Shown in pieces: positions 4,780 through 47,015 of a DNA stretch of 64,000 nt. The notes below the pieces were generated by a model. It made no database searches, was not told the DNA's origin, and saw nothing but the letters and a program-made list of their open reading frames with translations. The stretch is from NCBI GenBank assembly GCA_030324005.1, contig JARDVH010000193.1, forward strand, positions 85,121,384 through 85,185,383. The letters run 5' to 3'. Made by a program: the position numbers and the translations under genes. The stretch's first letter is position 1; every line of letters starts with the position of its first letter. This DNA comes from Negaprion brevirostris (taxonomy: Eukaryota).

Positions 4780-5700
4780 TCACAGACAGCTCGCATAACC
4801 AGGGTCTACAGACAGTCCCTGACATACCTACAGATTTCCAAGAACCAGTGTCAAAGACTATGTATGTTCAGAGTATTGGCTGGTCGTATCTGCTGCCTGC
4901 TGCAGAATTTGGCCCCTCAGGGAATTGAGGAATACCTGATGCCAGTGTCGTTGAAAGTGACTGTGGTGCTCAATTTTTACACCAGTGTATCTTTCCAGGG
5001 TTTCATGGCAACCACTCACCACAAGCAAGTGCATCCAATCTTTGCACACAATTTTGTGCATTTCAACCGGGATCAGGCAAAATCAGGAAGCAAGGGCAAT
5101 GGAATTTGCACAGATCTTGGGTCTTCAACAGGTGTTGTGTACTCTCAGCCCTGTGACATCAAGCTGCGAACTATCTGAACTGCAAAGGCTTCCAATCNNN
5201 NNNNNNNNNNNNNNNNNNNNNNNNNNNNNNNNNNNNNNNNNNNNNNNNNNNNNNNNNNNNNNNNNNNNNNNNNNNNNNNNNNNNNNNNNNNNNNNNNCAA
5301 AGGCTTCCAATCAGCTGATCTGCAACCACACCAAATGCATTCTGCAGATGTGCACTCAATTCCCAGGGAATGTGCATGATTCCTACATTTTCCACCACTC
5401 TCAGATTGTGACATCTCTCTAAGTTAACAGCAGCTGCAGGGTTGGCTCCTTGACAACAAAGGCTACTGATGATGCTGGTGCAGAGGTCACAGAGCACAGC
5501 AGAGATAAAGTACAATGAGGCTCATGCTGCACTCATATTCTGGTTGAACAGTGCATTGGGATTTTGAAGATGAAGTTCTAGTGCCAGGACTGGTCTGGTG
5601 GAGCCCTGCAATACAATCCACAGAGTGTGTAATGTACTGTCAGTCATTGCTCGCTGCAACCTATACAATTTGACGCTGAAATGGGGGAAAAAACTGCCCA
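4780..5700 (+). mobile_element. PIF/Harbinger (HARBI1-like) DDE transposase pseudogene
   Basis: Motifs MPVSLKVTVVLNFYTSVSFQG, QLICNH..ILQMCTQFPGNVHDSYIF, GWLLDNKGY, YNEAH, VEQCIGILKMKF*C.D.SGGALQY; stops and frameshifts present. Confidence 0.8.
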
Positions 5701-7427
5701 AAGGGGTGAAGCAGCAGCATGTTTCCCACAATAAGGAGTACACAAAAGGGGATAAACCTTGAGGGCAAGGATTTTGGCCAATGAGGTAATGGTGGTGTCC
5801 AGACGAAACAGACTAGATCAGGGTATGCTCGTTGATTCAAGGAAGGTGACAAGGACACCTAGTGAGAACATCCCATTATCTTCACATCAATTGTGAGAGA
5901 ACTGTACTTGTGCCTGACTGATGGAAGCACAGAGACTATGTGTAGTAAAGCTTCCTGTCATGGAGATGCAGCGGATGCCTGTTGTCCCTACATTCCAGTA
6001 GGATGATGATGACCCGCAGTGGGGACAGTCCACAGATCCTCACAGAGCATAGGTGGAGTTTCTGGTGCAGATGGAGGAGGAGAAAGTGGGTTCCCGGACA
6101 CGCGTCCTTTGTTTGAACAGAGGGGAGTNNNNNNNNNNNNNNNNNNNNNNNNNNNNNNNNNNNNNNNNNNNNNNNNNNNNNNNNNNNNNNNNNNNNNNNN
6201 NNNNNNNNNNNNNNNNNNNNNNNNNNNNATGGCGGGGCAGGCTCGAAGGGCTAGATGGCCTACTCCTGCTCCTATTTCTTATGTTCTTATATGCCAATTC
6301 CTGACTTCTGCTTAGCTAACGGCAGCTCACTTGCTGTCAATGGACAGGATCACATCATGGTCATGCAGCAGGGAAACATTAACCTCTCCTGATTCTATGG
6401 CTTCTTTAATGAGCTGAATCCTTGAGGAACGCAGTCACTGGAGGCAGAAGCTGATGGGATGGGGAGACTGTCACATGTCAAAGAGAGCAGAGAGCACACA
6501 TGGAGAATGACTGGAATCTGTGATGCCAGCCCTGTACAATATGGCAGAGATCCCAAGTCCCACTGAGATACAGGAATGACTGAAGTGTTCAGTCACTGTG
6601 AAGAAATGCCATCAACATACTAGGAAGTTTACAAAACACATGGAGAAAGCCCTAAACTGAACACCCTGCCGTTATCTTGTGCAGGAAATAGATTTTCACT
6701 TCAGATTGCCAGGAATGCAAGGATAGGGTGAAATTATTTTTTTACGGAATTGAATGTCATGTCCAAGTGATTAACACCTGAGCCCATGATGTGCAACTAT
6801 GACTTCTTTAACCTTCGATATCTTTGGATGCCCCTGCCTCAGCCTGCTGTGGATTGGATATTGTGGTGTGCTCAGCAGCTTGTGACCTTGAAGCTGCTCT
6901 AAAACTGGTTCCCATCATTGTGCGCATGTCTCTGTGATAGTGGAGGGTGTGGGTAAAAAATTTTACTGTCAAGCACCTGGCTTACTAAACACCTTGGTTA
7001 CACTCCAAATGTGCCTGCAAAAAGGAGATGTGATCAGTGCATGGTAGGAGCTGAGAAACTGGAGATGTTATTCACAGCATGAGTCTGATGGATACTGCAG
7101 TGCTGAATCCACTTGGTTGAGTGCCACTGACCTCATAATCAGTACAGGAATGGTCCACATGCCCTCTGACCAGCTGAAGTGCTCTCTCCTCAAGATCTGT
7201 GCGTTCCTTAAATTCAGCCATTCTTCCACTAATCTGGGATTTATCTCTCTTGTAATATGCCAGCTTGTCCTGAATGAAGACAGATCGAGAGTGCAAAAGC
7301 AGGCCAACTGCCACGCCAGATGAGAAGGACACCTGACATGCGTGTGTGGTGAATGTGGACATGGACAGGCCGAGGACATAACCCACAGGGGAGATGAAAG
7401 TGTATGGTAGTGATGTCCCTTGAGCTA

Positions 7428-14039: not shown

Positions 14040-14950
14040 TCATAGAATCATTGAGTGCAGAAGAGGCCCTTCGGCCCCATACTCTACATAGGTAGANNNN
14101 NNNNNNNNNNNNNNNNNNNNNNNNNNNNNNNNNNNNNNNNNNNNNNNNNNNNNNNNNNNNNNNNNNNNNNNNNNNNNNNNNNNNNNNNNNNNNNNNCGAA
14201 CTCGCTGGGGTCTTTTAAAAGACTTCTGGATGAGTACATGGGATTTAATGGGATTGGGGGTTATAGATAGGTCAATGGATTGGTAGGTATTGATGTGATC
14301 GGCGCAACTTGTGGGCCGAAGGGCCTGTTTGTGCTGTAGTCTTCTATGTTCTAAGTCCATACTGACACATTAGAAACACCTGAACTCCCACCTATTCCCA
14401 TCTGCCAGCACTAGGCCCTTAACCTCGAATGTTATGATGTGTCAAACGCTCATCCAGATACCTTTTAAAGAATGTAAGGCAACCCACCTCAACCCCATCT
14501 CAGGCAACACGTTCCAGACTGTCACCATTCTCTGGGTAAAAAAGTTTCTCCTCACATTCCCCACTAAACTTCCAGCCCCTCACCTTGAACCTATATCCCT
14601 TCATGACTGACCCTTCAACTAAGGGGAACAGCTATTCCTTATCCACTCTGTCCATGTCTCTCATAATCTTGTGCATCTTGATCAGGTTGCCCCTCAGTCT
14701 TCTCTGCTCCAATGAAAACAACCCAAGCCGTCACAACTTCTCCTCATAACTTAAATGTTCCATCCCAGGCAGCATCCTGGTGAATCTTCTTTGCACCCCC
14801 TCCAGTGCAATCATATCTTTCTGATAATCAGGCAGCCAGAACTGCAAACAGTACTACAGCTTGACCTCACCAAAGTTCTACACAACTCCAACATGATTTC
14901 CCTGCTTCTGTAATCTATGCCTTGATTGATAAAAGGCAAGTGTCCCATAA
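14040..14950. mobile_element. CR1/HER1 LINE 3' fragments (plus-strand tail after the gap, minus-strand RT end at 14355-14950)
   Basis: Tail ctgtagtcttctatgttct; minus strand encodes LEYCLQFWLPDYQKDMIALEGVQRRFTRMLPG. Confidence 0.75.
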
Positions 14951-16815
14951 CCAAAAGAGAAAATGCTCGAAAATCTCAGCAGGTCTGGTAGTATCTGTAA
15001 GGAGAGAAAAGAACTGACGTTTCGAGTCCAGACAGCCTTTGTCAAAGATAAAGGTATAGAAGATGGGAGATAATTACACTGCTGGGTGAGGGAGTGAAAA
15101 ATGAGTTATAGTCACAGAAACAAGGGAAACCAGCTAATAGCTGTCCACTGAGAGAATAAAGGGTATGAATGGCCAAACTACAGAGAAGCATGGGGTGGGA
15201 GGAGGAGATCAGAACAAATGCAATGGAAATGAAGGAGCTGAGAGAAAGGAATGGAGTCCTCACAAGATGTAGGATATGAAGAGCTGTAGTCCAGATAGCT
15301 GAGGGAGTCAGTGGGCTTCTAGTGCATATTGATAGATAGTGTATTGCCGGAAATGGAGTCAGAAAGGTCATGGAAGGGAAGTGTCTGAAATGGACCAAGT
15401 GAAGACAACGNNNNNNNNNNNNNNNNNNNNNNNNNNNNNNNNNNNNNNNNNNNNNNNNNNNNNNNNNNNNNNNNNNNNNNNNNNNNNNNNNNNNNNNNNN
15501 NNNNNNNNNNGAAGAGGGGATAAAGTAGGGGGAAAGAGTGAGGGGGAAAAAAATGAAGAAAGACAATAAAGAAATAAAAAATAGAGAACAACAAAACATT
15601 AAACAAAATGAAATCAAAGGGGTTGAGGTGAGGTCGAGTAATCATCTGAAGTTGTTGAATTTGATGTTGAGACTGGAAGGCTGCAATGTGCTTAGCCAGA
15701 CAATGAAATGCTGTTGCTGCAGTTTGCCTCGGCTTCACTGGAACATTGCAACAGGCCAAGGACAGACATATGGGCATGGGAGAAGGATTGTATGTTAAAA
15801 TGGCGAGCAACGAGAAGGTCAGGGTCCTGATTGCGCATAGACCGAAGCTGCTCAGCAAATTGATCACCCAGTCTACCTGCGCTTGGTCTCTCTGATATAG
15901 AGACCACATTGGAAGCAGTGGACACAATAGACCAAATTGAAAGAGGTACAAGTAAAATGCTGCTTAACCTGGAACGAGTATTTTGAATCTTGGATGGTAA
16001 GCATGGAAGTGGTAAAGTGGCAGGTGTTCTGCAATTGCGTGGAAAGGTGCCAAGAATGATGGGAGAGATGTTGGGTATAGTGGAGGAATGGATTAGGTTA
16101 TCCTGGAATGAATGGTCTCTGTGGAATGCTGACAGAGGGAGTGAAGGGAAGATGTGTTTGGTGGTAACATCACCACCATTTTGGTGAAAATAGTATAGGA
16201 TTATGCTTTGAATGCAGAGGCTGATGGGATGAAATGTGAGGGAGGGAAGGTTGTGGCCCGGTAGATAGATCGCACGTTGACAACTATAGGTGGGAATCCA
16301 CGGTTGAGGGACAGAAGAGCACATATTAAAAACACAGTTTGGAAAGTGGCATCATCAGAACAAATGCAACAGAGGCAAAGGAGCTGAAAGAAAGGTATGG
16401 AGTCCTTACAGATAGCAATGGGATTCAGTAGGCTTGCAATGGATATTGGTAGATAGTCTATTGCCAGAAATGTAGACAGAAAGGGCAAGAAGGGAAGGGA
16501 AGTGTCTGAGATGGACCAGGTGAAGTTGAAAGAGGGGTGGAAACTGGAGGCAAAGTTGATGAATTTTTCGGAGTCTGGACGAAAGCATGAAGTGGCACCA
16601 AAATAGTCATCAATGTACTGGGAAAGCATTTGTGGGAGGGGACCTGGGTAGGCTTGGAACAAGTCAAGCGTAGCTAGGACCCATGCAGGTACCCACTGCT
16701 ACTCCTTTGACTTGGAGAAAGTGGGATGAGTTAAAGGAGAAGTTGTTGAGAGATAGAATGAGTTCAGCCAAGTGGAGGAGTGTGGTGGTGGGTGGGAATT
16801 GTCCAGGTCTCTCTT
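14951..16815 (-). mobile_element. Penelope-like retroelement remnants (RT plus GIY-YIG endonuclease), two segments separated by a gap
   Basis: YIDDYFGATSC..FINFASSFHPSFNFTWSISDTSLPFL (RT) and RLGDQFAEQLRSMRNQDPDLLVARHFN (GIY-YIG) in ORFs 16201..16662 and 15692..16324. Confidence 0.85.
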
Positions 16816-20862: not shown

Positions 20863-21828
20863 CAGGGCATTGAGCCGGGCTTCCTGCTGGGTGCCATGGC
20901 CTCCATGAGTCTCCAGGCACTGAATTTCCAGCGTGGAGCTGTATAATTTTTGGTAATTCTAATTTTATTGTTATTTACATATGATTAGCAGGCCTAGGAC
21001 TGAAATCTCCAGCCCAGCTAGCCCCCCCACCCACTCCAGCGGGGTTTACTTTAGCTCCCCACTTGCTGAGAGCTGGCGGTCCAACCCCACTGCAGTGGAG
21101 GAGGGCAATCAAGGTCCCTCAGGCAGTCAGGGGTCAGCCCACTGGGCATTGCCAGCCTGGCCCTTTGGCACTGCCCACCAGGAAGGGTGGGAGGTTGGAA
21201 CTGCCAGAGGGTGGGGGAATTGGGAAGTGCAGGTGGGCGCGATCTCAATGTGGACAGAACAGCACATTTGCAGAGGCTCGCTCAGCACTAAGCTGCTGGC
21301 CTCTCCAGTGGTAACAGGCCCCGACCACAGATTTTTTGCAAGAATCACACTAGTGCATTCTGCTTTGCAGAGTGTGGAAGATTCATTTTGAAAATCCCTC
21401 TGAAAAAATCAGTGGGATTTATTCCATTTTTACGCGAATCTGGCACATCAAATTATTTTTTAAGAATGAAGACCCCCACCCGTATAACAAATAGATTCTT
21501 TCAAAAATAAATATTCCTCAATTTCAAAATTTTACAACTCTCTAAAACAAATGAGCTAAAAGTTGTAGCTGAGGAATCTGCAAATTAAACACTGAAAAAC
21601 CAAAGCAAAAATGCACAACTGTTAGCAAGGAAATATAGTTGCCGATTTTAACCACTAAGTGGTTCACTTTGCCTGTGAAATAGTAATGGAACTCAGCATA
21701 TTGTGTTGTCTTCACCTGATAATTCTGCATTAATAATTTAAATACTTTAGTAAGGTATCTAAAATAGATGAGAAGCGGCAACACAGTTGCAATATCTACT
21801 GAATAATGAATCCACTTATTGCACCTAC

Positions 21829-21869
21829 CAGTCTTTAAATATGATAAAAGAGAGTCCAGTCGCTCATGT
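21829..21869 (-). CDS. TEX11: TEX11 coding exon 11 in window: HERLDSLLSYLKT
   Basis: 41 nt, CAG/GTAGG, phase 2->1; resembles human KEMDRLLTCLNR; restores frame between neighbours. Confidence 0.82.
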
Positions 21870-22819
21870 CTGTCAAAAGTAAGACATTTATATTTAGGTA
21901 TTGACACTACATAATTTTTAGAAAGTATGGTTTATGCCTCAAGTATAAGCAACACTTTACGTAATTTTAGTTACACTGTCCGAATCAGGAATGTTCAATA
22001 TTGTCCAGTAACAAGGCCACAACTATATACAACTCATATGTGACTTTCATACGATTAAACTGCATTTAAGTCAGGCAATATTATGATGTGCACATTATTA
22101 AAATAATTACTTATTTAAAAATGTACTTCACATCCCTCTCCAGATTTGTTTTCAGCTTCCAGATTCTGGGAACCCATCTGAGAACTTACAAATGCTAGAC
22201 TTTACTTCCAGTGTTTCCTAATTCTAAACGGCCATAATTTTTTCAGATTCTGAGATCTTTCTTGCCCAACCAATGGATCTCTCTCTTCCAAAGATCCCAG
22301 GTGCCTAAACTTGTCACTATATTCTATATTGTTCTTGGAACCCTGGGACCCTCCTCCTCGAAGCTGCCATATCTGGGACCCACCCTCAAAGTACAGCTAT
22401 CCCCAAAGCAAACATCACATTCCCACAACCAATATTCTCTTTCACCGTCTTTCTTTGTTGGCATCATTATCCTTGATAATACAGCACAATAGTCCAGTTC
22501 TTATAACACCTGTCTTATCATGAATGATACTATGGGAGATCTGCCAATAAGTTTAAGAGCTTTCTATTTACAATGAAATATATCCAAGTGTAAGGGTATG
22601 AATACATATGTTTAAATTACAACAGTTTATGACATATTGTGGTAGCTATACAGGTCAAATAAAAATTAATTTCACATTGCAAATGGTTTGTTTTAGTACA
22701 TAGAACTAATATGCTATTTTTAAAACTGATAACAGAAGCAGCTTATATTAAGAAAAGGTGGCCGATATTGTTTGAAAAAGGAAACACAACTCAAGCTATG
22801 ACAAGAGTGGACCAGTACA

Positions 22820-25909: not shown

Positions 25910-28900
25910 AGAAGTTTTGCAGGAGTATTGTGTGCTGTTCTGGAATCTGCATTATAGGAGGAATGTGATAGCATTGGAAATGGCGTAGAGAGGAGATTTA
26001 CAGAATGTTTCTTGGACTGGTGGTCTTTTATAATGAAGAGAGATTGAATAGAATGGGATTGTTTACATTGGAGCAGAGGAGACTGAGGGGAGACATGATT
26101 GAGATATATAAAATTATGAGGGGCATAGCTAAAGCAGATTGGAAGAAACATGTCCCCTCGATGGAGGGATCAATGACCAGGTGATATTGATTTAAGTAAG
26201 GGGCAGGAGGTTTAGAGGGGATGCGAGGAAAAACCTTTTCACGCAGTGGGTGGTGGAAGTCTGGAACTCACTACCTGGAAGGGGGGTGGAGGCAGAGACC
26301 GTCACAACATTTAAGAATTACTTAAATGTGTACTTGTGATGCCAAGGCATGTAAGGCCAAGTTCTGGAAAATGCGATTAGAATAGTTGGTGATTTGTTTT
26401 TGACGAGCACAGACGCAATGGGTTGAAGGGTCTTTTTTTAATGCTCTCAAACTCTGTTTCTAATTGTCCATGACTTTGATAAGACCTCACCTGGGGTACT
26501 TTGCAAAGTTTTGGTCTCCATATCTGAGAAAGGATATACTCGACTTCGAGGCTTTCAACAAAGGTTCACTGGATTAGTCCTTGAGGTGAGAGGGTTGGGG
26601 AGGTGATGGCCTATGGTATTATTGCTGGACTACTAATGCAGAAACTCAGCTAATGTTCTGGAGACCTGGGTTTCAATCCCGCCATGGCAGCTGGTGGAAC
26701 TTGAATTCAATAAAAAAAAATCTGGAATTAAGCATCTACTGACGGCCATGAAACCATTGTTGATTTTCAGAAAAACCTATCTGGTTCATTAATGTCCTTT
26801 AGGTAAGGAAATCTGCTATCCTTACCTGGTTTGGCCTACATGTGGCTCAAGCCACAGCAGTGTGGTTGATTCTCAACTGTTCTTCCAAGGGCAACTAGGG
26901 ATGGGCAATAAATGCTGACCATCCAGCAACGCCCATGTCCCATGGATGAATAAAAAACAGTGAAGAGAATATAAGTAAACTGGGCCCATATTCTCTGAAT
27001 TTAGAAGAATGAGAGGTAGTCTCATTGAAACATACAAGATTCTGAAGGAGTTCAACAGGGTTGACACTGGTAAGTTGTTTCTCCTGACTGGGAAATCTAG
27101 AGCATACTGTAAAGCTTCAAGATAGAAATCAATAATTTAGGATTGAAACAATAAGAAATTCTTCACTCAAGAGGGTTGAGATTCTTTGGAATTGCCTGCT
27201 CTAGAGGACTACGATGGTCTGTTATTGAGTATATTCAAGGCTGAGTTCCATAGATTTTTGATTTCTCTGGGAATTGAGGAATATGGTTACAGGGAAGGAA
27301 GGCTAGCTCAGGTAGACGATCAGCCAAAATCATATTGAACAGAGCAAACTCAAAGGCCCAAATACTCAACTATTGCTTTTTTTGTGTACTAATTCAACAA
27401 GATCATGACTAATCTCCTCTCTCAACTCCATCTTCCAGTATCTCTTAATTGCCTTTGCACCTAAAAATTCATTGACTTTTGTCTTGGATAAAGTCAATAA
27501 TTGAGCATCATCAGCTCTTTCGAAAGATTCGCAATCCTTTGGGTGAAGAAACTTCTCTGCATATCAGTCCTAAATGACAAACACCTTTTTCTGAGACTGG
27601 AACTGTATGTTCTGCATCCCCCAGTTGGGGGAATATTTTCTCAGCATCTATTCTAGAATTATATACAACCGATCTTTCAACTGGATAACCTCCCATTTTT
27701 TGCAACTCCAGGGAATATTAGACTATGTTACTCAATGTTTCCCCAAAAGACAATCTCCTCATCTCTGAGCCAGCCTATGGATTTTTGCTATGCTCCCTCT
27801 AGGCAAGCATTATCCTTTTTGGATAAGGAGATCAAAGCTAGTGAGGCCTCACTAACACCCTGTTATGATTGTGGCAAACCTTGTGTTTTCATACTTCAAT
27901 CCCTTTGTAACAAAAACAACAATTTGTCCTGAATGCCTCTCGTACCTGCATGTACCTTTGTGATTTAGTACAAAGATATCCAAGTTCCTTCAGAATGCAA
28001 ACTAGCATTCAAAACATTCCTTCTGCCAAAGTGGATATTTCACACATTACTGCTCTGCATACTATGTGCCATATCCTTGCCTGCTCACCCGACCTGTCTA
28101 CATTGTTCTGCAATCTGTTCAATTTGCGTTCACAGCTTACTTTCTGAGTTAACCTTGTAATGTCTGCAAAGAGGACTACACTTAGTCCTCTCATCTAAGT
28201 CATTAACATAGTGTATAAATAGCTGAGGCCCAAGCAGAGGTCCTCCTGGTACAAAATATGTTCCATTTTTTCCTGCTTTGCTTTTTGTCCATTAAACAAA
28301 CCTCAATCCATGCTAATGTTTTATCTTAATCCCAAAAGTCCTAGATTGTGTAATAATCTCATGTGTAGCATCGTATTGAATGTTTTGAAATTACAAATAC
28401 ACTATTTCCATTGGTTCACCTGTCTACATTTTACTCATGACATGCCCATGAAACTCTACCAGATCAATCTAACATGATTTTCCATTTATAAATAAGATGT
28501 CACATCTAACTAAATAAGAGAACAGGTCCAAACAAAAAGTTCATTTTTATCATGGATAGAGGATTGTTCAGCCAACAAGAAACAGAGAGCAGGCATAAGT
28601 GCATTATTTTACACTGGGAATGAATGGATGAAGGGATTGAATGCATGGTTGCTAAATTTGCAGGATAGCTGCGAGAGAAGAAGAGGGCATAAGGAGACTG
28701 CCGCAAGACATTGGTGGGTAAGTTGAGTGGGAAAAAAAATGGCATGTGGAATATGATGTGGAAAATCGGGGACAGGAAGAAAAGCAACACACTATTTAAC
28801 TAGAGAGGATTTGCTGAACTTCGCAATACGGAGCAATCTGGGTGTCCTGGTTCATGAAACACAAGTAGTATGCGAGCACAAGTGATAAGGAAAGCAAATG

Positions 28901-30870: not shown

Positions 30871-32595
30871 CAGATATGATCTACAGAGAACCATCAGAGA
30901 TGCTGAGAGACAACACCGGACCAAGCTAGAGTCTCAGGCTAGCCAAACGAACACCCATCCATTGTGGCAAGGTCTACAAGACATAACAGGCTACAAGGTG
31001 AAGACAAGTAGAATTGCCAGCAACAATGCACCTCTCCTGAATGAGCTCAGAACATTCTACGCTCGTTTTGAGCAGGTCAGTGAGAGGTCGTCATCTGACT
31101 TGACAACCTCGGTCGAACCAGTATCCAAGGTCATTATTGCAGTCTTCAGATCAGTCTTCTTGAAAGTTAACCCACAGAAAGCGAATGATCTGAATGGAGT
31201 CCCAGACGAGTATTCAAATCTTGCGTGGGGGTATCCGGACATCTTTAGTCTCCCCTTACTCCGATCTGAAGTTCCTACCTGCTTTAAGAAGATGACCATC
31301 ATCTATGTGTCAAAAAAAAAAGCCAGGCAGCATGCCTTAATGATTACTTCCTAGTGGCTCTGACATCCAACATTATGAAGTGCTGCAAAAGACTAGTTAC
31401 TGCAGACACAAACTCTGGTCTACCAGACTGCCTGGATTCACCAGATTTCATCTATTGCCTCGACAGATCCACAGCAGATGCCATCTCCCTGGCCCTACAC
31501 TCAACCCTGGAACACCTGGATAACAAGGACACTTACATCAGGCTCCTACTTATTGACTACAGCTCAGCCTCCAGCACCATTATTCCAACAAAACTTACCT
31601 CCAAATACCACGGCCAAGGGCTCTGCTCCTCTCTGCAACTGGATGCTAAACTTCCTAACTCATAGGAACGACATCTCCTCCACGATTATCCTCAACACCA
31701 GTACCCAACAAGGCTGTGTCCTTGGCCCCTTACTCTATTCCTTATACACCTATGACTACGTTGCCAAATTCCGCTCCAACTCCATTTTCAAGTTTGCTGA
31801 TGGCACCATTGTACTGGGTTGGATCTCATTTGATGACAAGACATAGCACAGGAAAGAGGTCGAGAATCTGGTGAAATGGTGTGTGATGGTGGAGTGATAA
31901 CCTCCCAATGTCAGTAAAATGAAGGAACTAGTCATCGCCTTCAGGAAACATAGTGGAGGACATGCCCTTATCTATATCAATGCTGATAAAGTGGAGATGG
32001 CTGACAGCTTCAAATTGCTAGGTATTCAGATCACCAACAATCTGTCTTGGTCCCTCTATGCTGACACTATAGTTAAGAAAGCCCACCAAGCCTCTACTTT
32101 CGCAGAAGACTGAGGAAATTTGGCATGTCCACGAGGGCACTCACCAATTTTTGCTGTTGCACCATAGAGAGAATCCTTTCTGTAAGTATTGCAGCTTGTT
32201 ATGGCTCTTGCTCTGACCAAGACTGCAAGAAACTACAAAGGGTTGTGAACAGAGACCAGTCCATCATATAAACCAGCCTCCCATCCATTGACTCCCTCGG
32301 GAAAGCAGCCAGCATAATCAAGGACCCCACATATCCCAGACATAATCTCTTCCACCTTCTTCTGTTGGAAAGATACAAAAGTCTAAAAACACTTGCCAAT
32401 AAACTCAACAACTTCTTCCCTGTTGTCATCAAACTTTTGAACTATCCTATCATATATTAAATTGATCTTTCTCTCATCCTATCTGTAACTGCAACACTAT
32501 ATTCTGCACCCCATCCTTTCCTTCTCCCATGTACTCTATGAACAATATGTTTTGTCTGTATAGCCAATACATGTTACAATAATAAATCAAATTAA
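30871..32595 (+). mobile_element. Rex1/Babar non-LTR retrotransposon, 5'-truncated, decayed RT
   Basis: WQGLQDITGYK, RSTADAISLALHSTLEHLDNKDTYIRLLLIDYSSA, QQGCVLGPLLYSLYT, FKFADG; 3' tail aataaatcaaat. Confidence 0.88.
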
Positions 32596-36708: not shown

Positions 36709-36811
36709 CTTTTTGTATATCACTTTCCAAAATAGCAATTTTGTAGAGACTGAAGTGGGTGAAGATATTATCTGGGTCAATTCGTTCTGCTTCTTTTATA
36801 GCCTCTTTTGC
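36709..36811 (-). CDS. TEX11: TEX11 coding exon 7 in window: AKEAIKEAERIDPDNIFTHFSLYKIAILESDIQK
   Basis: 103 nt, CAG/GTAGA, phase 0->1; within ORF 36500..36841; resembles human [30 protein letters not shown]. Confidence 0.94.
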
Positions 36812-37689
36812 CTGGATACAAAAAAATTGAGGAAGGTACAATGCAATTTAAACCAGCTTCATCACTCTTGTTAATTCCTATAAAAAAATTAGCTTTAAGA
36901 TGGTTTATCACAANNNNNNNNNNNNNNNNNNNNNNNNNNNNNNNNNNNNNNNNNNNNNNNNNNNNNNNNNNNNNNNNNNNNNNNNNNNNNNNNNNNNNNN
37001 NNNNNNNNNNNNNAAAAAATTAGCTTTAAGATGGTTTATCACAATAATTTCACACTCTGCATAGATGCATCATTGCTTGAAAGGCATTAAGACTCAGATG
37101 TTGTTCATTTATTTAGAAACTGTTTACTGATAGACTTTTTATATTCAAATAATGTTCTCAATGACAGACACATGGTATTGCAACATAGATGGCACAAAAT
37201 AAAGAATCTGATGAGGAAAGCTAAAAAAAAGAGAGTTACTTAGATTCAATGCAAGTAAACAAAAGGTATAATGGAGCAGTTAATTTAATTAAAAATAGAC
37301 ATATGCCAAGAATCTGATAAGATTCTGCCCTAAAAGAAATACGTGAGAAACCTATTGATCTTCCAAACTTCTCAATTCAGGAATTGCCCTCTTGGATTGG
37401 AAAATTAATCAATCAACGATTTTAGTGTCAGTTGTGAGGAAGTTAGTAGAATTTGTCATCGAGACAGTGACTGAGCATTTGACAATTGGCAAACAGGTCA
37501 CCTTGGCTTATTGCCAGGCAGAACTAGGAAGCAGTCACATGCTCCCTTTTATATTTAGTTAAAAGATTCAGCTTAAAACATAATCATCTTATGAAACTTC
37601 TCACTTGTAGCAACACTTGAAGTGAGTGTGTTCACAGACCCTAACTACTAGGTAAGTTTTTCTTCATCTTGTCTTTTGTATTTTCTTCA

Positions 37690-38940
37690 TTCATCTTAAA
37701 TTGGTGTCTTTTGGTTCTTGATTCTTGCACCAATTGTTGCAGTTTCTATCTACTCTGTCCAGACTCCCTCATGATTTTGAATACCTCTAACAATCGTTCT
37801 TAAGTGGCATCCCCCATATTTTGAAATTGTGCCCCTATACTAGACTCTCCAACCAAGGCATACTTCTCAACTGCATTTACCATCTATTCCTTTAGGTATT
37901 TTGTAGCTCACAATGAAATGACCTTAATTTTTTTGAAACTCGTGAACACACACTGGTCTAATTTGCACAATCTCCCTCCATAAGGCATTCCTGCCATCCC
38001 CGGAACAAGTCCAATGAATCTTTGTTGCACTCCCTCTATGGTAATAATATCCTTTCTGAAGTAAGGGGATCAAAATTGCACACATGAATGGTCAAACCAA
38101 GTTTCTATTTAAAATAAAATCTTATTTATGTAATGAAGTTCTTCAAATCTGGAACCAATCTTGTGAATATTTTCTGTACCCTCTCTAGTGTCTTTACATC
38201 CTTCCTAAAGCATGGTGTCCAGAACTGGATGCGATATTCCAGTTGATGCCAAATCAGTGCTTTATGCAGGTTCATCAGAACTTCCCTGCTTTTGTATTCG
38301 ATGACCCTATTGATAAAGACCAGATACATTTTTTTAACTACTCTCTCAATCTGTTCTGCAACTTTCAATGATTTGAACACACCCTGTGTCTTCTGCTCCT
38401 GTATCTCCTTTACAATTGTACCCTATATTTTATATTACCCCTTTTCGTATTTTGTACCGAAAGAATCATTTCATGCNNNNNNNNNNNNNNNNNNNNNNNN
38501 NNNNNNNNNNNNNNNNNNNNNNNNNNNNNNNNNNNNNNNNNNNNNNNNNNNNNNNNNNNNNNNNNNNNNNNNNNNNTTTCATGCTTTTCTGCATTAAATT
38601 TCATCTGCCACTTGCTCACCCATTCCAAGCAGCATGTCTACACCATCCTTCTCATAGTTCACAATACTTACAAGTTTCATGTTATCTGCAAATTGTGTCC
38701 TGTATGTCAAAGCCTTGGTCATTAACACATATCAAAGTATAGGGATCCTAAAATTGGCTCCTGGGGAACCCCACTATATTCATTCCTTCATCTGAAAAAC
38801 AACCAGTCAATCATTATTCTTTACTGCCACTTAGTCCATTTCATATAATGTTGCACTGTCTCTTTTATTCCCTGTGCTCTTCTGTGCAGAGCTTTATCAA
38901 ATGCCTTCTGAAAATCCAGGTGCATCAACTACAGTACCCT
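37690..38940 (-). mobile_element. CR1 LINE fragments
   Basis: WVSKWQMKFNAEK; IEYKSREVLMNLHKALIWHQLEYRIQFWTP. Confidence 0.8.
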
Positions 38941-39915
38941 CATTAATTCTCTTTCGTTACCTCATCAAAAAGTACAACCGGACTAATTACACGGGCTTGT
39001 GCCACAGCTACCTCCCTCCATACCATTTTTTTTGGGTATCTCTTACAGTCATCCAAGTCCTTCTCTTCGTTGCTATATTTTATCTGCAGAGTCTGAAAAC
39101 TTGATTCAATGGAAGCTTTGGGCACTACGCTATCTAGTTGTCTATCACATTTCTCTTAATAAAGAATTTAAAATCTCAGTGAAAAATCTGAAGTCATCGT
39201 TATGACTTATTTAGTCTTGCAGGTGGTTAACCAGTTATCCTCTGTTCCCCTGCTACTAAATTGCTCACACAAGTTATGAAGAAAACATGGAATTTCCTCC
39301 CAAAAAATGTGGTGAATAATAAATCAACTTGAAGTTTCAAGGTGTAATCAATCATTTTCCTTTGATAAAGCCACTAAGATATTAAGAAAAAGCAGTAAAT
39401 TGAGTTTATGTACAGAGTAGCTGATTTAATAACAGAACCAATTTGCAAGAAAGGTGGGGGTGAGGCTGAATAATCCACTTGTTCTGTTTAAAGTAAGTGC
39501 TGATGTTTACAGGATGGATCTTAAGGTTACCTCTCCTCACACAATATGGAAATCGTTTTATATGCAATTCTGCTTTATCAACACCAGTCAGTATGCAAAT
39601 TAATTGATCTTGTAAACTGAAGCAGCAGTGTTGGACTGGGTTGACAGTGGTTAAACACTACACCAAAAGCAATTATTTTGGACAACTATATGTGTGTAAT
39701 TTTAGGATCCAGGTATTCATCTTAAATTTAGTGTTGTTTGCCTGCATCTTACTGTATAATTTGGGTCTTTAAAAAAGTGTAATATAAAAATCTAGTGGAT
39801 AAATAAATGTAATACAAAAGGCCACTGATTCATGGCAAAAAGAATTTCATGTAATTCAATCTCTGAAGCATCAGTAAAAATTCCAAAATCTTCTAACAAC
39901 AATGAAATTTAATTT

Positions 39916-40190
39916 ACATGCAAATTAGCAGGCCATTTGTGTCTGCTCCATCATTTAATAAGACCATTGCTGATCTGATTGTGGCCTTAATTCTGCATTC
40001 CTGCCGAGCCCCTACGTTGAATTCTTGGTTCTCGTCATACTTCCCCTGCCTTAAAAGTATTAAATAATCTGTCTCCACCATCCTGAGAAAGACAGAGTTC
40101 CAAAGACTTACAAACCTCAGAGAAAGAAATTCCTTCAACTTTGTCTTAAATGGACAACTTTCTTTAAAAATATGTGGTCCCCAGTTCTAC
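39916..40190 (-). mobile_element. CR1 3' fragment, left half (continues at 46138-46295)
   Basis: FLSLRFVSLWNS...; sequence resumes collinearly at 46138 (cccctagttct...cctttcctcataagataac). Confidence 0.65.
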
Positions 40191-40329
40191 AGCCAACATG
40201 TCGAGTTAGGATGACCTTGACTCAAAACACTGGCTCTATTCTCTCTCCACAAATGCTGTCAAAGACTGCTGAGATTTTTCTATTTTGTTTCAGATTCTAG
40301 CATCTGCAGTAATTTGCTTTTATTTTTCC

Positions 40330-40487
40330 TGCTTCTTGGCCTTTTGGCTAAGATCAAATGTAGTATCGACATTACTTGGTTGAAGTCATTAGGTTACATT
40401 TTAGCTTCATTTGAAGCAACTTTTAAAAGCAGCATCTTGGTCTTTTGGCTAAGATGCAAATGAGATCAAGCCTTGGAGGAGGTGCAG
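40330..40487 (+). mobile_element. U2 snRNA-derived dimeric repeat, copy 1 (truncated by gap)
   Basis: tgcttcttggccttttggctaagatcaaatgtagtatc matches the U2 5' end (ATCGCTTCTCGGCCTTTTGGCTAAGATCAAGTGTAGTATC) with CpG decay; second U2-like monomer at about 40434-40470. Confidence 0.8.
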
Positions 40488-40850
40488 NNNNNNNNNNNNN
40501 NNNNNNNNNNNNNNNNNNNNNNNNNNNNNNNNNNNNNNNNNNNNNNNNNNNNNNNNNNNNNNNNNNNNNNNNNNNNNNNNNNNNNNNAGGCTCGAGGGGC
40601 TAGATGGCCTACTCCTGCTCCTATTTCTTATGTTCTTATGTACCTGAAAAGGCGCAGAGTGTGGAGACTAGGAAATTTTCACAATAACTTCATTGCAGTG
40701 TTAGTGTAAGCCTACTTGTGAGACTAATAAATAAACTTTAAAACTTTAATACTTTATTTTGCACTCTCTCCTTTCCTTCTCTATGAATGGTATGCTTTGT
40801 CTGTATATTGCCCAAGAAACATTACTTTTCACAGTATCCTGTCAGAGAAA

Positions 40851-43800
40851 TTTATAGTAGGTTAGAGAAATTTCAAATAATCAGGGATTTAAGTACCTAA
40901 TAAAACTACCAGTACTGAGTGAAATTAGCTCAGATCAGACTCTCAGCCTAACAGGGGAATTGTCCACATGAAAATGGTATGAACACAATAAGAGATTTAA
41001 ATAAGGATGAGATTTAAACAAGAATTTCTGACTTAAACATGTATTTTGATTTAAAAATGTATGTTAGCTGTATTTTAAAGTAATTGTACACTTTAGCCAA
41101 AGGCAGGCTGTTGCAAGGTATCATGGGATGAAGTCTCAGCAGACAATCCACATTCTTTGGAACAATGAAACCAAAGGATTTGCATAATTTTATCAGCAAA
41201 AATTACAAACAGTATGGTTCCCAAAGCCGCTTTATGAATAGGGCTGTTCAAGTTGTCTTAATAAGACAGTTCTTCTCAGGCATGAGAATATCAGCTGTCT
41301 GATTTGGCCATTGATGTGATTGAGAATTGGTGGGAATGGTAACTTTAACCTTTGTTTCTAAGCCTCTGGGGGAAGAAGCATCCAGATTCCATGAACCAAT
41401 GAAATGCCATGATATCACAGGGTAAAATGCAATTGGCTAAGGTACATGACAACTATTAACAATGATTGATTTGTACTAATAATGACTGGTTCATAACTAC
41501 TGGATGGGCCAGAAAAGTAAAACTTGAGAAATGTAAAATTAATTTTTTGATGCATTGTAACTTTAGAATGGTATTGGGATGCTCAAGGCTTTCCCTTCTA
41601 GAAAGGCACTGGACTGCTCAATGCTAACCTCTCCCATCGATATTTGGTCAAATAAAAATACATCTTTAACTGGGATACCAGCTTCGTGAGTCATTGTATT
41701 AGCTGAAATTTCGGCATTAGGTAATCTCTGAAAAGAAGTTGCAACAACTTTGGCACTGTGAGCAGGGTAGAAGTCACAGGAATCCAGCAGCAAGATGCAT
41801 CTCCTACAAGAGGGTGAACATATTTTACCACCTGAGTTGTTAAAGGAGTAATGTGGCAAGCCATCAGAGTTGTAAGTTGACCTACCCAAACAAGTGTGTG
41901 CGAGAGGTTGCAAAAACAGTGTCACTGTGTAAAGAAATTGTGCTTGGGCGGGGGGCAAGGATGGATTTTTACAGCTGCCCTGCACAGCGGAGCGAAAAAG
42001 CCACATGGCAGGCAAAGAAGTTAGGTGTTGGGTGTGCTTAATGCAGAGGACCAGGGACAATTTCCTGGCACGCTCTGAGCAGCAGTGCTAAAAAGCCATA
42101 CATCAGGGAGGCATCAAGGGATGGGGCCACACACAGGGGTAATGGAAGGTCCTGATGTAGGGGTCTTGGATCTCTAGAGAGGGGCTCAACAGAAAAATAG
42201 AGAAAAGGTTGAGAGACGGGAACTGCATGATGGTGACAGTCAATCCAGATATAAAAGATTTTCAGTGGACAGCTGAAGATAATCTAATACAAACAATAGT
42301 GCCAGAGCATGGAAAATTGATAAAGATGATGATGGAGAAGCACGTGATGCCGAGCAGAAGGCTTGGTAGAAAGGTCAAGTGAAGTATAAACCCAAGGGAA
42401 AATCCCGCAGGAGAACTGACAGTGCAAAGATCGGAGCACGAATGTGTTGTGTAAGTGATTGAGGGAGAAAATGAGGGTTTAGCAGAAAAACGACTTGTAA
42501 GAGAAGGGGCAATTAACCTACATGTAGATGGAGTAAGAAAATAGGTTAGGCAAGAACCCCACACTGCATGGGCATTGGTAGATGATGAAGAAAAAAATAA
42601 AGGTAAAGTTTATTTATTAGTCACAACTAAGGCTTACACCTTCAGAGTAACTTCATTGGAGTGTTAATCCCCTAGCTGCCATGCTCTGGTGCCTGTTCGG
42701 ATCAATGCACCTAACCAGCCTATCTTTCAGAATGTGGGAGGAAACCCATGCAGACAGCGGGTAGAACGTGTAAACTCCACACACAGTGACCCAAGCCGAG
42801 AACTGAACCCAGGTCCCTGGCACTGTGAAGCAGCAATGCTAACCACTGCGCTAACATGCCATTTCATTAACGCTGCAATGAAGTTACTGTGAAATTCTGC
42901 TAGTTGCCACACTCCGGTGCCTGTTCGGGTCAATACATCTAACCAACAGTGATTGCAGGAGAATAATTCAGCACAAGTAGCAGAGTTGTTAGCTTTAACT
43001 AAAGCTCTAAAGTGGGGAAAAGGGAAGTGAGTTAACATCTATACTGACAGATGTGTATTTGGTGTAATACATGACTACATGACAAGTTGCAGTAAGCATT
43101 GTTTTGTAACTAACAGACGATACATAGAGCTTGAGAATTTGATTAGAGATTTAATCCAAGTAGCCTCCAGCCCCCTGGAAATAGCTGTAATAAAAATGCA
43201 GGTCCATAGAAGGATTGAAGGTCAAGTGCAGAAAGATTCACAGCTGGGCGAATAAGCAGCAAAAGATTTAATAGAACAGAACGTGGAATGGATATAGACT
43301 CCAGGAGCAGCAGCATTACGAGTTAGGGATAGCACAGACGTTGATGTAAAACAGATACAAGAATAGGCATCAGGAGAAGAGAAACAGAGATGGGAGAATT
43401 ACGAAGGACAAAAAGACCATAATGGAGTATGGAGAAGGAAAAAGAAAAATAGCCCCAAATGCAATACAGCAAACTTTGTTAAAAGTATACCAAGGATTAG
43501 CTCATAGAGGGAGAGATAACATGACCAAATTACTTGGCGACTGCTGATATTGTAAGGGCATGGGAAGGGACATAGCAAAATGCTGCCAGCGATGCCTACA
43601 GTGCGCTCTGGTGGAACCAGGTCATCCCTTCAGGATTAAAATGGAAAATCAGCCACAAATCAAAACTCATATATGGATTTTACAGGACTTTTGCTTCAAG
43701 TAAAAGGAAAAACATTGTTTAGTAATTATCGATCAGTTTACCCGATGGGTAGAGACATTTCTGACCACAGCCACAACTGTTGCTTCGATATTGGCAAAAG

Positions 43801-45832
43801 AGATAATACCTACATTGGAAATGCCTCTCCAGTTGGACTCTGACCAGAGAACTCACTTAACAGGAAGAGTTTTAAGAGATGTTAGGGATAAAACAAAGAT
43901 TTCATATACCATACCACCCCCAGAGGTCAGGAATGGTAGAACAAATGAACCAAACATTGAAGAATAGTTTAGCTAAGGCTATTTTAGAAGAAGAAACAAT
44001 TGGGTACAGGCTTTGCATGTAATATTGCTGCGATAGAGAGCTACTTCTTCTCGAAGAACAGGATTAATCTCTTTTGAACTAATGACAGGAAGAACAATGC
44101 GACTCCCAGAGGAGGGAATAACAGGGGGACAAGAACTTGAAATCAGCTAAAGAGCAGAATTTTAATGTATGAACGATTTAGTAGACCACCCACATTTTCT
44201 CAAAAAACAGGTAATCACTCAACAGCAACATTGAGACTGGATGAAAATGGCAGAGAATGCTCCCAACTTACCCACATCCGGGGATAAGGTAATGGTGAAA
44301 CTCATGACTGACACAAAAGGGTCATGGGTTCATTGGGAGGGACACTATGAAGTGGTTGTCACAGGACTAACATGTGCCCTAGTTAATGAAGAATGCAGTC
44401 TGCAATGGTGGCATTGGACACAGCTTAATCTATATCCTACTAAGCAATCCAATGAACAATGAAATTGACCAGTGGATGAATGATCCTATAGAACAAAGGG
44501 TTATTATGGCTTTAATAGCTACCATAACGTTAAGAGGGATAATTTGAATTTGCATATGAGCTACCCGATTAGGCCAGACCATGGCACAAGAGAATCCAGA
44601 GAGTATTAGAAGCGAGGTTATAGAAATAATTCACTTGGTGAAGTACTAACATAAAGCTGAAAAGCACTTTGGTTACATTTACAGAATACCACTGGTGCTC
44701 CAAGAATTCTGAATTAACAGCAGGATCAAGCAATAATACAATATTGTATTATTACAGACAATACCCAAGAAATATCAAATAAATTGCATGTAGTAAAGTG
44801 TGATGTGGTTGCTATGCAAATCTTTAAATAAGTTTCACGAACTTGACATTAACCAATGGTTGGGACTTTTTTTAAGAAGGCTGTAGAAACTGTCATGATG
44901 AATACATGTGTTTATATCCTTTTAGTATTGAATATACAGATACTAGTTTAGACAGGACCAGCATCTAAGGTCATTCAATGTTTCCCTTGGGGACTATGCG
45001 TTTATATTTACTTATACCTGGCAGATACATATACTAAACTGTCCAACCAAAGTGTTGGATTTGTTCACATACCCCCATCCATGTGGGGGTGGGAGTTACC
45101 TTTACAGCAATTGCCCCAGTCATGGGCAGAGTTGATAATGGCAGATCAAACAGTTCAGAATTCCAAGGACACCAGGGTTCTTTAGCAGAGAGAAAGGAAA
45201 AGAATTTCACAGAAGTGAGTCTTGTACTGGAAGGTTAGGCCAAATGAAGAGATGCACACCTATCTATGATCTAGAAAAAAAACAACTCCTAACCTAATCT
45301 TAAAATAGATGACACCAAAGTCAAAAGGGCTAAGAATATGTAAGGCACTGGGAGAAACCTAGGCATAAGTGAATGTCACTACATGGTAGATTGAACTAGC
45401 CAACTATGTCTGAGTCCACCCAGTAATGACCAATCTTGCAATATCTCATTGTAAGTGTTGCCTCCCTTGAAACACAACTCTCAATAGTACACATTGAACT
45501 TGAGGGAATAGGGCATATACTTGGTTCCCTTATGGAAGGGATCATGTTACCTTGGAAACGTAATCCCATTTATACTCCTCAAGTGCTTCCCTTATCAAGA
45601 CATCAATGAGCTTTAAGGAGACTGGGTTTTTGGTAGAGTGTTTCCCTCATACAGAGTTGGGAGAGTGATGTGAGAAACTGAGTATATACGCCTAATTTTG
45701 GAACAAGTTGCCAATGATACAGCCATTGCCCTTACTAAGATCAATGCTGAGATAGTTCCCATGTGCACTGTGGTACTTCAACATCAAATGGCATTGGATT
45801 ATGTCTTGACAGTTGGGGTGGAACATGTGCAT
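40851..45832 (+). mobile_element. Decayed class I (gamma/epsilon-like) endogenous retrovirus: RT connection, RNase H, integrase, env
   Basis: SAQVAELLALTKALKWGKGK*VNIYTD (RNase H), CQRCLQC, MDFTG, LVIIDQFTRWVETF, LDSDQ, FHIPYHPQRSGMVEQMNQTLK (integrase), CWIC at 45053-45064 (SU), VLQHQMALDYVL..GGTCA (TM immunosuppressive domain); many stops; left boundary approximate. Confidence 0.88.
42602..42945 (-). mobile_element. V-SINE (with duplicated tail segment) inserted in the ERV RNase H
   Basis: Reverse-complement SINE head and tail; interrupts RNase H between HVDGVRK...AWALVDD and SAQVAEL. Confidence 0.8.
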
Positions 45833-46120
45833 TCTCAGCCTTTTGGCTAAGATTGAGTGTACTTTTGACATGCCGTGCTTGGTTGAAATCATTGGTTTAG
45901 ATTTTAGCTTCATTTGAAGCAATTTTTAAAAGCGCATCTCAACCTTTTGGCTAAGATGCAAATGAGATCAAGCCTTGGAGGAGGTGCAGTGCCTACTCCA
46001 ATCAGCTTGGATCGTGTAGACCAAACCCAAGACAGCCCTGTCTTGTCAGCTTGGATCAGGAATGTCTCACTTGTGGGGACTCTGAACTGAACTAGATTTG
46101 ACTGAATTGGATTAAAGAGA
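45833..46120 (+). mobile_element. U2 snRNA-derived dimeric repeat, copy 2 (apparently complete, about 290 bp)
   Basis: tctcagccttttggctaagattgagtgta, second monomer ccttttggctaagatgcaaatgagatcaagccttggaggaggtgcag nearly identical to copy 1, then a unique 3' body. Confidence 0.8.
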
Positions 46121-46799
46121 AATTTCCTTTTATTTTTCCCCTAGTTCTCATCTCTTCTACCAGGAGAAGCATTCTTTTGGCATCAACCTGGTCAAAGCCG
46201 CTCAGGACCTGATGTTTCAACAGGATCTCTTTACGTTCTTATAAACCCAAAGGATAAAGGGCAAGCATGCCTAACCTTTCCTCATAAGATAACTCAAATA
46301 ATGTAGTCACTATAAACCATCTTTTAAAAATATTAATATTGCTGCCAGCAATTCCTGGAGGAATTTATTCCATTTGCTGCCTTCAGTGGAATATCAGTGA
46401 AGGCCTTAGATATACTGCGTGAACAGAGTATAGTGGCTGTTTGGGGAACCCTGAGGAAATTCCAGGTGTGTGCATATGATACATATATTGTCAAAATGCT
46501 ACATATAGCACATTGTCCTGTCATGTTAAAATCAAATTTTCCAAGAATCTATCACAACATGGAATCCCTCAAAACTTTACTTCGACATAAGCTGTGTGCA
46601 TCCAGTAATATTGCCACTTTTTGTCCCCAAATAACATAGCTGGCAACATTCCACAGAAAATCTGCTTCTACACACGCACTGCTATAACCTTGGGAACCAA
46701 TGTACACTTATACTCATAGAATAGAACTACAGAATTCCTACAGTGTAGAACAGGCTATTCAGCCATTTGTGCATCTATTCAAATAATGAAAAGTAGTAC

Positions 46800-46937
46800 C
46801 TTTTCCAATTGATTTAGATGAAGGTAGCAAGATGTCCTGTTTCTCTGCAGTCTAGCCAGGTTCTGATCCAGTTGTCCGGCAGAAAAAAAACTTAATGAAT
46901 AACTATACCATTGGAGAGCCTCTGTATAATTCTGTAC
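46800..46937 (-). CDS. TEX11: TEX11 coding exon 6 in window: VQNYTEALQWYSYSLSFFSAGQLDQNLARLQRNRTSCYLHLNQLEK (TPR)
   Basis: 138 nt, TAG/GTACT, phase 0->0; resembles human VQNYTDALQWYYYSLRFY...KLQRNMACCYLNLQQLDK. Confidence 0.95.
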
Positions 46938-47015
46938 CTAGAAATTGGGAAAACAAAATATGAAAAGGAAATGACTCCCACTCACTTTAAAGCTCAGTCT
47001 GATTCTTTAAAGGGT

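Follow-up and report, generated by a model that had tools for sequence, protein, structure and literature searches.

The locus lies in a 64-kb window of the Negaprion brevirostris genome (contig JARDVH010000193.1), and all results rest on the sequence of this window. The gene TEX11 occupies the window on the minus strand, with 16 exons placed in order by tblastn; a protein search with one exon recovered TEX11 of sharks and skates, the best match being that of Mustelus asterias (98% identical). The intron at 36812–46799, between two consecutive exons (46800–46940 upstream and 36710–36811 downstream, both minus strand and placed by tblastn), houses an apparent composite unit, in which two repeats with a U2-derived head bracket several kilobases of other DNA. 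The window is a fragmented assembly: it contains 16 gaps, nine of which measure exactly 100 N, and one of these nine (40488–40587), the true size of which is not given by the assembly, falls inside the unit. A search for sequencing runs listed 22 runs from 10 studies with shares of 0.07–0.76; these shares are uninformative on continuity and were not used. GC content and intron length were also compared, and neither discriminates between the readings considered below.

The first repeat (copy 1, 40330–40487, plus strand) is represented by its 5′ 158 bp and is then cut by the 100-N gap, so that its 3′ half and the true length of the unit are absent from the sequence. The second (copy 2, 45829–46120, plus strand) is about 290 bp long and is likely to be a mosaic of two copies. 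Each contains two pieces of the U2 5′ region, and both start at the U2 5′ end. The copies align on the same strand (40333–40487 with 45832–45989) at 85.5% identity over 159 bp and both match Rfam U2, with E values of 6.6 × 10−7 and 0.0054 that are below the gathering score in both cases; at the gathering score, Rfam found nothing in the whole window. This confirms the two same-orientation U2-derived repeats of the initial annotation, with the correction that copy 1 is visible for 158 bp only. Compared with the Rfam U2 consensus, the head of copy 1 has 2 differences in 37 positions, and the head of copy 2 has more. The tail of copy 2 (46079–46120, plus strand) has a period of 5 (20 of 37 matches at lag 5), with three CTGAA units and no poly(A).

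The body of the repeat gave nothing meaningful with Rfam, and a tRNA search found none. Folding of the body as a whole is not significant (z = −1.6), and two of four hand-picked hairpins reach z = −2.5 and −3.8. Searches for protein relatives of its reading frames returned none, or two unrelated repeat proteins. The family members seen in the window amount to two diverged 5′ parts and one 3′ part. Protein-level searches for further copies of the repeat body found none, and matches to a 19-base motif at 12 metagenome and 2 viral loci were rejected as further copies, all 14 extending over 19–20 bases only and being attributable to chance. Judged from these letters, a U2-headed short retroposon is real in this shark, whatever the status of the composite.

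Between the copies, the contig to the right of the gap begins with the 3′ tail of a young LINE (40588–40640, plus strand; 98% identical to 6239–6290, itself beside a gap), followed by scraps of SINE and LINE tails (40642–40807, plus strand) that match 42862–42930, 42604–42698 and 32487–32562. About 1.1 kb of DNA of no assigned type (40830–41900; 37% GC, no TEX11 exon) leads to a decayed pol on the plus strand. Its segment at 41950–42650 has no Pfam match and presumably covers the reverse transcriptase (RT) connection region up to the start of RNase H, an assignment made from motifs in the translation. SINE pieces (42650–42945, minus strand; 75–81% identical to other window copies) are nested in RNase H, which is itself broken (42944–43210, plus strand; PF00075, E = 6.6 × 10−5). 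The zinc-binding and core domains of an integrase follow (43455–43904, plus strand; PF17921, E = 3.9 × 10−7; PF00665, E = 0.0022), broken by stops and frameshifts. Among solved structures, the integrase is nearest to foamy-virus integrase chains (E = 3 × 10−7), which identifies these as the nearest solved structures only; the search for its relatives retained 0 of 76 candidates, with one weak match to a viral contig elsewhere. The last segment (44460–45828, plus strand) is an env-like remnant that ends just past a motif resembling an immunosuppressive domain; we take it to be env from motifs in the translation (CWIC and LQHQMALDY), and searches for env relatives in Pfam and PDB gave no match. 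No gag, RT core or long terminal repeats (LTRs) were recognised in the cargo, and tblastn found no TEX11 exon in it. The earlier description of about 5 kb of retroviral pol and env thus stands for RNase H and integrase, which Pfam places on the plus strand, and shrinks elsewhere: the recognisable retroviral part spans about 3.9 kb (about 41950–45828), with env assigned by motifs only.

The outer edges of the unit were compared as 19-mers. Pattern search confirmed the reported pair at 40311–40329 and 46121–46139 (plus strand), which agree at 18 of 19 positions (chance per site, 9 × 10−10). A merged pattern of the two has exact matches in the window at these two places only, and when up to 3 mismatches are allowed there are 3 matches against 0.13 expected. 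A third 19-mer was sought between the repeat copies and none was found.

The DNA beyond the 19-mers belongs to an interrupted LINE that we take to be of the CR1 clade. Its ORF2 end forms the left half of the empty site (40040–40188, minus strand; alignments to window CR1 copies and translation), and further ORF2 sequence forms the right half (46139–46320, minus strand; shuffle test against 26961–27086, tblastx). An older repeat (40189–40327), which we assume to be Penelope-like, had been inserted in this CR1 and is bracketed by an older duplication of 10–12 bp (40179–40188, with its partner at 46139–46148). A second window copy of the older repeat (14929–15038, minus strand) finishes with the same motif; an Rfam hammerhead search of 40189–40327 gave no match. 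The 19-mer consists for the most part of the end of this older, unrelated repeat, and is completed by the first bases of the CR1 as it resumes on the right. Against the CR1 copy at 26900–27300, alignment places the right flank at 27086–26961 (score reached by 0 of 300 shuffles) and the left flank at 27191–27135 (by 7 of 300); the left flank also aligns to the CR1 copy at 26254–26296 (0 of 300). The spacing is 50 nt in the rejoined flanks and 49 nt in the reference copy. Other reference CR1 copies give weaker or no support for the rejoining: 5 of 18 pairs of reference and flank have at most 3 of 300 shuffles reaching the score, several pairs not being significant, and in a separate flank alignment 2 of 4 exceed the shuffle maximum. 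Because the two flanks fit together as one CR1 with a difference of 1 nt in spacing, the DNA beyond the 19-mers represents one site, and the 19-mer is, as these alignments indicate, a true target-site duplication (TSD) of that site, as the initial annotation had proposed. The refuting case named there, that the 19-mer is part of the consensus 3′ end of the U2-headed repeat itself, is unlikely because the 19-mer is built from bases of the older repeat and of CR1. The family may have a preference for the older repeat as a target, which would leave the one-site result unaffected.

The last 46 bp of copy 1 (40442–40487, plus strand) reach the contig end and are identical to 45944–45989 in copy 2 (46 of 46), compared with 90 of 113 (80%) in the preceding columns. 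Permutation gives P = 0.0005 for a terminal run of this length and P = 0.011 for one at any position; 7 of the 18 changes are of CpG type, and without these the values are P = 0.002 at that place and 0.033 anywhere in the 159 columns. Over the full 290 columns, simulations put the chance of a 46-bp run at 0.005–0.063. No other non-simple exact repeat in the window is as long. The three of at least 30 bp each lie within 20 nt of a contig end, and one of these is simply a false overlap. Of the other eight 100-N gaps, three have ends that overlap (by 15, 31 and 8 nt), so 100-N gaps can hide zero or negative distances. At its far end, too, the cargo stops where a contig naturally ends, about 52 bp inside the young LINE tail. 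From the identity and the pattern of contig ends, copy 2 looks like a mosaic: its 5′ part would be older and go with env, its 3′ part with copy 1 and the TSD.

When the 5′ junction of copy 2 was examined, as planned, for a duplication of its own, a 9-mer common to env (45793–45801) and the end of the tail (46106–46114) emerged, with a null probability of 0.004–0.011. We weigh this match lightly because it would need a duplication of 36 bp and because the word fits the pentamer pattern of the tail; the TSD range for L1 and RTE is 7–18 bp, so 36 bp lies beyond it (PMC6007223, in the part available).

On balance we think it probable that a single copy of about 290 bp lies between the TSDs, and that a foreign contig, composed of a decayed endogenous retrovirus (ERV) and the 5′ part of another copy, was joined to it via the shared run. 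The approximately 5.5 kb between the apparent copies would then likely be a contig from another locus. Repeat-induced misjoins in short-read assemblies are a recognised type of artefact, and the likeness here is that the terminal run of one contig recurs, letter for letter, as an internal repeat in the next, with a gap of unspecified size in between. We favour a misjoin because of the 46-bp identity at the contig end between copies otherwise 80% alike, and because of the behaviour of the other 100-N gaps; the contig does end, next to a gap, on an exact run that the other copy also has, and the cargo lacks any TEX11 exon linking it to the intron. The possibility of an assembly chimera at the repeat, listed in the initial annotation, is thus the one that the contig-end run and the other gaps favour, and the inference drawn there, that the unit arrived as one piece, for instance by retrotransposition of a transcript reading through from one repeat to the next, is not upheld as the leading reading.

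Such a misjoin would have come about as follows. A LINE enzyme would have inserted one U2-headed RNA by target-primed reverse transcription (TPRT) at the end of the older repeat, creating the 19-bp duplication, and another copy of the family would sit inside a decayed retroviral env elsewhere. An identical core of k-mer length in both copies would have merged their paths in the assembly graph. The wrong entry path, leading from the LINE tail through env into the 5′ part of that copy, would have been joined to the 3′ half and right flank of the site, and the true left flank would have been set in front, behind a gap of undefined size. We infer that a wrong path through a shared k-mer is the simplest cause of the mosaic copy 2. 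Against this stands the 9-mer shared by env and the tail, as if the 3′ end of copy 2 had been born in env. A 46-bp run over the full 290 bp also arises by chance in 0.5–6% of simulations, a real duplication with an identical core would likewise break the contig there, and such joins are normally resolved correctly when reads exceed the shared run in length.

Were the unit real, a single TPRT event would explain it if the enzyme began at the tail of a copy situated within env and went on to copy more than 5 kb of upstream DNA (a 5′ transduction), with the end in a second copy reached through a transcript start there or a template jump to another U2-headed RNA. We regard this as unlikely. It accommodates the single 19-bp TSD around all parts in the assembly as given, the U2 5′ end at the start of both copies and, through the transduction, the stopping of env at copy 2; the match of the tail-end 9-mer to env would also follow, the 3′ end of copy 2 having moved with env. 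Its ingredients have precedents in the available parts of the sources: 5′ extensions and template switches of SINEU-2 (PMC4494074), 5′ transductions of L1 (10.1101/2025.02.02.635956) and tripartite chimeras in one TSD (PMC2104539). The SINEU-2 extensions measure 31–42 nt, however, not kilobases (PMC4494074, same part). Moreover, the 46-bp identity at the contig end is not predicted, the RNA would have to traverse six AATAAA motifs in sense, and the 3′ half of copy 1 is hidden by the gap.

Quite unlikely, in our estimate, is a homology-directed insertion, in which a circular DNA or an RNA carrying the cargo and a partial copy recombined with a copy already in place, using the shared core, so that the old TSD came to enclose two mosaic copies. 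This would account for the in-register junction, for the identical stretch that such a process requires and for a TSD that stems from one original insertion. Insertions of this sort are rare, though, and the 46 bp would have had to stay unmutated while the TSD copies came to differ at 1 of 19 positions. A circle would also place the 3′ half of the donor copy and the rest of env behind copy 1, where low-copy DNA should assemble, yet the contig stops.

That the U2-headed repeats are LTR-like terminal repeats of a retroviral element, in the manner of Cassandra, Helenus and Ajax, is very improbable. Two direct repeats do bracket the element in the sense of pol and env, and copy 1 begins with TG; but the duplication is 19 bp rather than 4–6, there is no CA end (the final six bases are AAGAGA), a polypurine tract is lacking (no 15 bases of 45760–45839 hold more than 11 purines), env is cut before any membrane anchor, and neither gag nor the RT core was recognised. 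The pentamer tail suits a non-LTR element, and the divergence between the copies is uneven. Equally remote is the idea that the 19-mer is a fixed target or the 3′ end of the repeat and the copies independent insertions: SINEU-3 is strongly selective for its target and does have tandem copies with a TSD sandwiched between them (PMC4494074, available part), but here the sequences beyond the 19-mers fit back into one CR1 with a discrepancy of at most 1 nt, the interval between the copies has no further 19-mer, and the 5′ flank of copy 2 is env, not the 19-mer.

The composite is therefore, to judge from its sequence and gaps, probably an assembly artefact. If a misjoin did produce it, a correct TSD around a composite is no proof of one insertion when a gap lies inside. 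It is doubtful that a U2-headed family of the shark can move kilobases, with one of its copies on either side, by a single target-primed event, and that it carried a decayed pol–env into TEX11 in this way with neither integrase nor LTR. If the composite is real, it would represent a SINE-bracketed transfer of several kilobases, retroviral remnants included, a route of DNA shuffling that we did not find described for SINEU in the literature. The parts of such a read-through event are already known; what would be new, as a variant, is a family whose own copies stand on both sides of kilobases of DNA, and this lies beyond proof by one gapped locus.

Several known systems resemble parts of the locus. 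Cassandra, Helenus and Ajax share small-RNA sequence in a terminal direct repeat, and differ in having a primer-binding site (PBS), a polypurine tract (PPT) and TSDs of 4–5 bp, whereas here there is no PPT or short TSD and the position of the PBS falls in the gap (PMC10886601, in the text available, where the word ‘snRNA’ has 0 occurrences). Keno and Utopia, LINEs that target U2, likewise leave U2 5′ fragments adjoining retroelement DNA; here the U2 piece is not followed by a LINE ORF and belongs to the element that the TSD encloses (PMC4640811, part available). Elements mobilised by RTE or BovB offer a (CTGAA)n-like tail and a TSD that starts with A after T, and the shark repeat has three CTGAA units with T as the base upstream of the TSD. 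As the available parts of PMC6007223 and PMC13295347 describe them, however, these elements have a T-stretch about 10 nt upstream and a TSD of usually 7–15 bp, compared with no T-stretch and 19 bp here.

Chimeras formed by template switching or 5′ transduction are alike in placing several unrelated pieces within one TSD of TPRT length. Reported cases, in the parts of the sources available, include L1 joined to snRNA, Alu or mRNA and 5′ transductions in one TSD (10.1101/2025.02.02.635956), the tripartite template-jump chimera of WEIRD, Mg-SINE and MGL (PMC2104539), and the 5′ transduction of SVA, as cited in PMC4494074. In the present unit, by contrast, one and the same short element would flank more than 5 kb of decayed and unspliced DNA on either side, and the left junction is not assembled.

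The closest parallels are SINEU-1, -2 and -3 of crocodilians, which share with the shark repeat a short length, a U2 5′ head, repeated U2 pieces, a TSD, insertion into another transposon and an internal oligo-T that argues against Pol III (PMC4494074, here and below in the part available). The shark repeat is of SINEU size (about 290 bp, under the limit of 500 bp), is non-coding and has the U1/U2-derived 5′ head, by Rfam U2. SINEU has a poly(A) tail, in contrast to the period-5 pentamer tail of the shark repeat, and no kilobase cargo is described for it there (PMC4494074). We call the repeat SINEU-like rather than a member of SINEU because it lacks the poly(A) tail and because its copies are known only from the window. 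SINEU is mobilised by Tx1-Mar, prefers Mariner-N4 as a target and is reported from crocodilians, with none outside (PMC4494074), an occurrence that a review repeats (PMC5381603, part available). A search of the freely accessible literature found neither a shark SINEU nor a U2-derived LTR, and a deposited family of the shark repeat may exist in Repbase or Dfam. Whichever reading holds, the shark has a short retroposon with a U2 head and a tail other than poly(A). SINEU-like elements would then have originated a second time, and the repeat bears on how such elements are transcribed without an internal promoter, a question raised in the available part of PMC4494074.

A 9-mer is common to the env-like remnant in the cargo between the two U2-headed repeats (45793–45801) and to the end of the period-5 tail of repeat copy 2 (46106–46114; null, 0.004–0.011). 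The favoured reading, in which a single repeat copy probably lies between the target-site duplications and the assembler wrongly joined a cargo contig to it through a shared 46-bp run, leaves this 9-mer without explanation. The env-like remnant also contains a perfect 22-bp palindrome (44732–44753). Approximately 1.1 kb of the cargo (40830–41900) was assigned to neither a repeat nor a gene.

The 100-N gaps at 5198, 36914 and 38477 are false gaps, the flanking ends of which overlap by 15, 31 and 8 nt, respectively. Sequences at 15208–15404 and 16354–16525, between which the 100-N gap at 15411 falls, are 70% alike and perhaps represent a tandem repeat or a further gap-side duplication.

An older repeat nested in CR1, which we take to be Penelope-like, is present in two copies (40189–40327 and, on the minus strand, 14929–15038) and has a 10–12-bp duplication of its own; Rfam detected no hammerhead in either copy. 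In the TEX11 region (21674–21871, minus strand), two database TEX11 models align to 21830–21871, whereas the Mustelus asterias model aligns instead to 21674–21760, a discrepancy that probably reflects differing gene models.

Within the body of repeat copy 2, positions 45966–46013 form a long hairpin (z = −2.5). It can be loosely aligned with the 3′ stem-loop in Rfam's model of U2 and perhaps constitutes a third segment of the repeat derived from U2.
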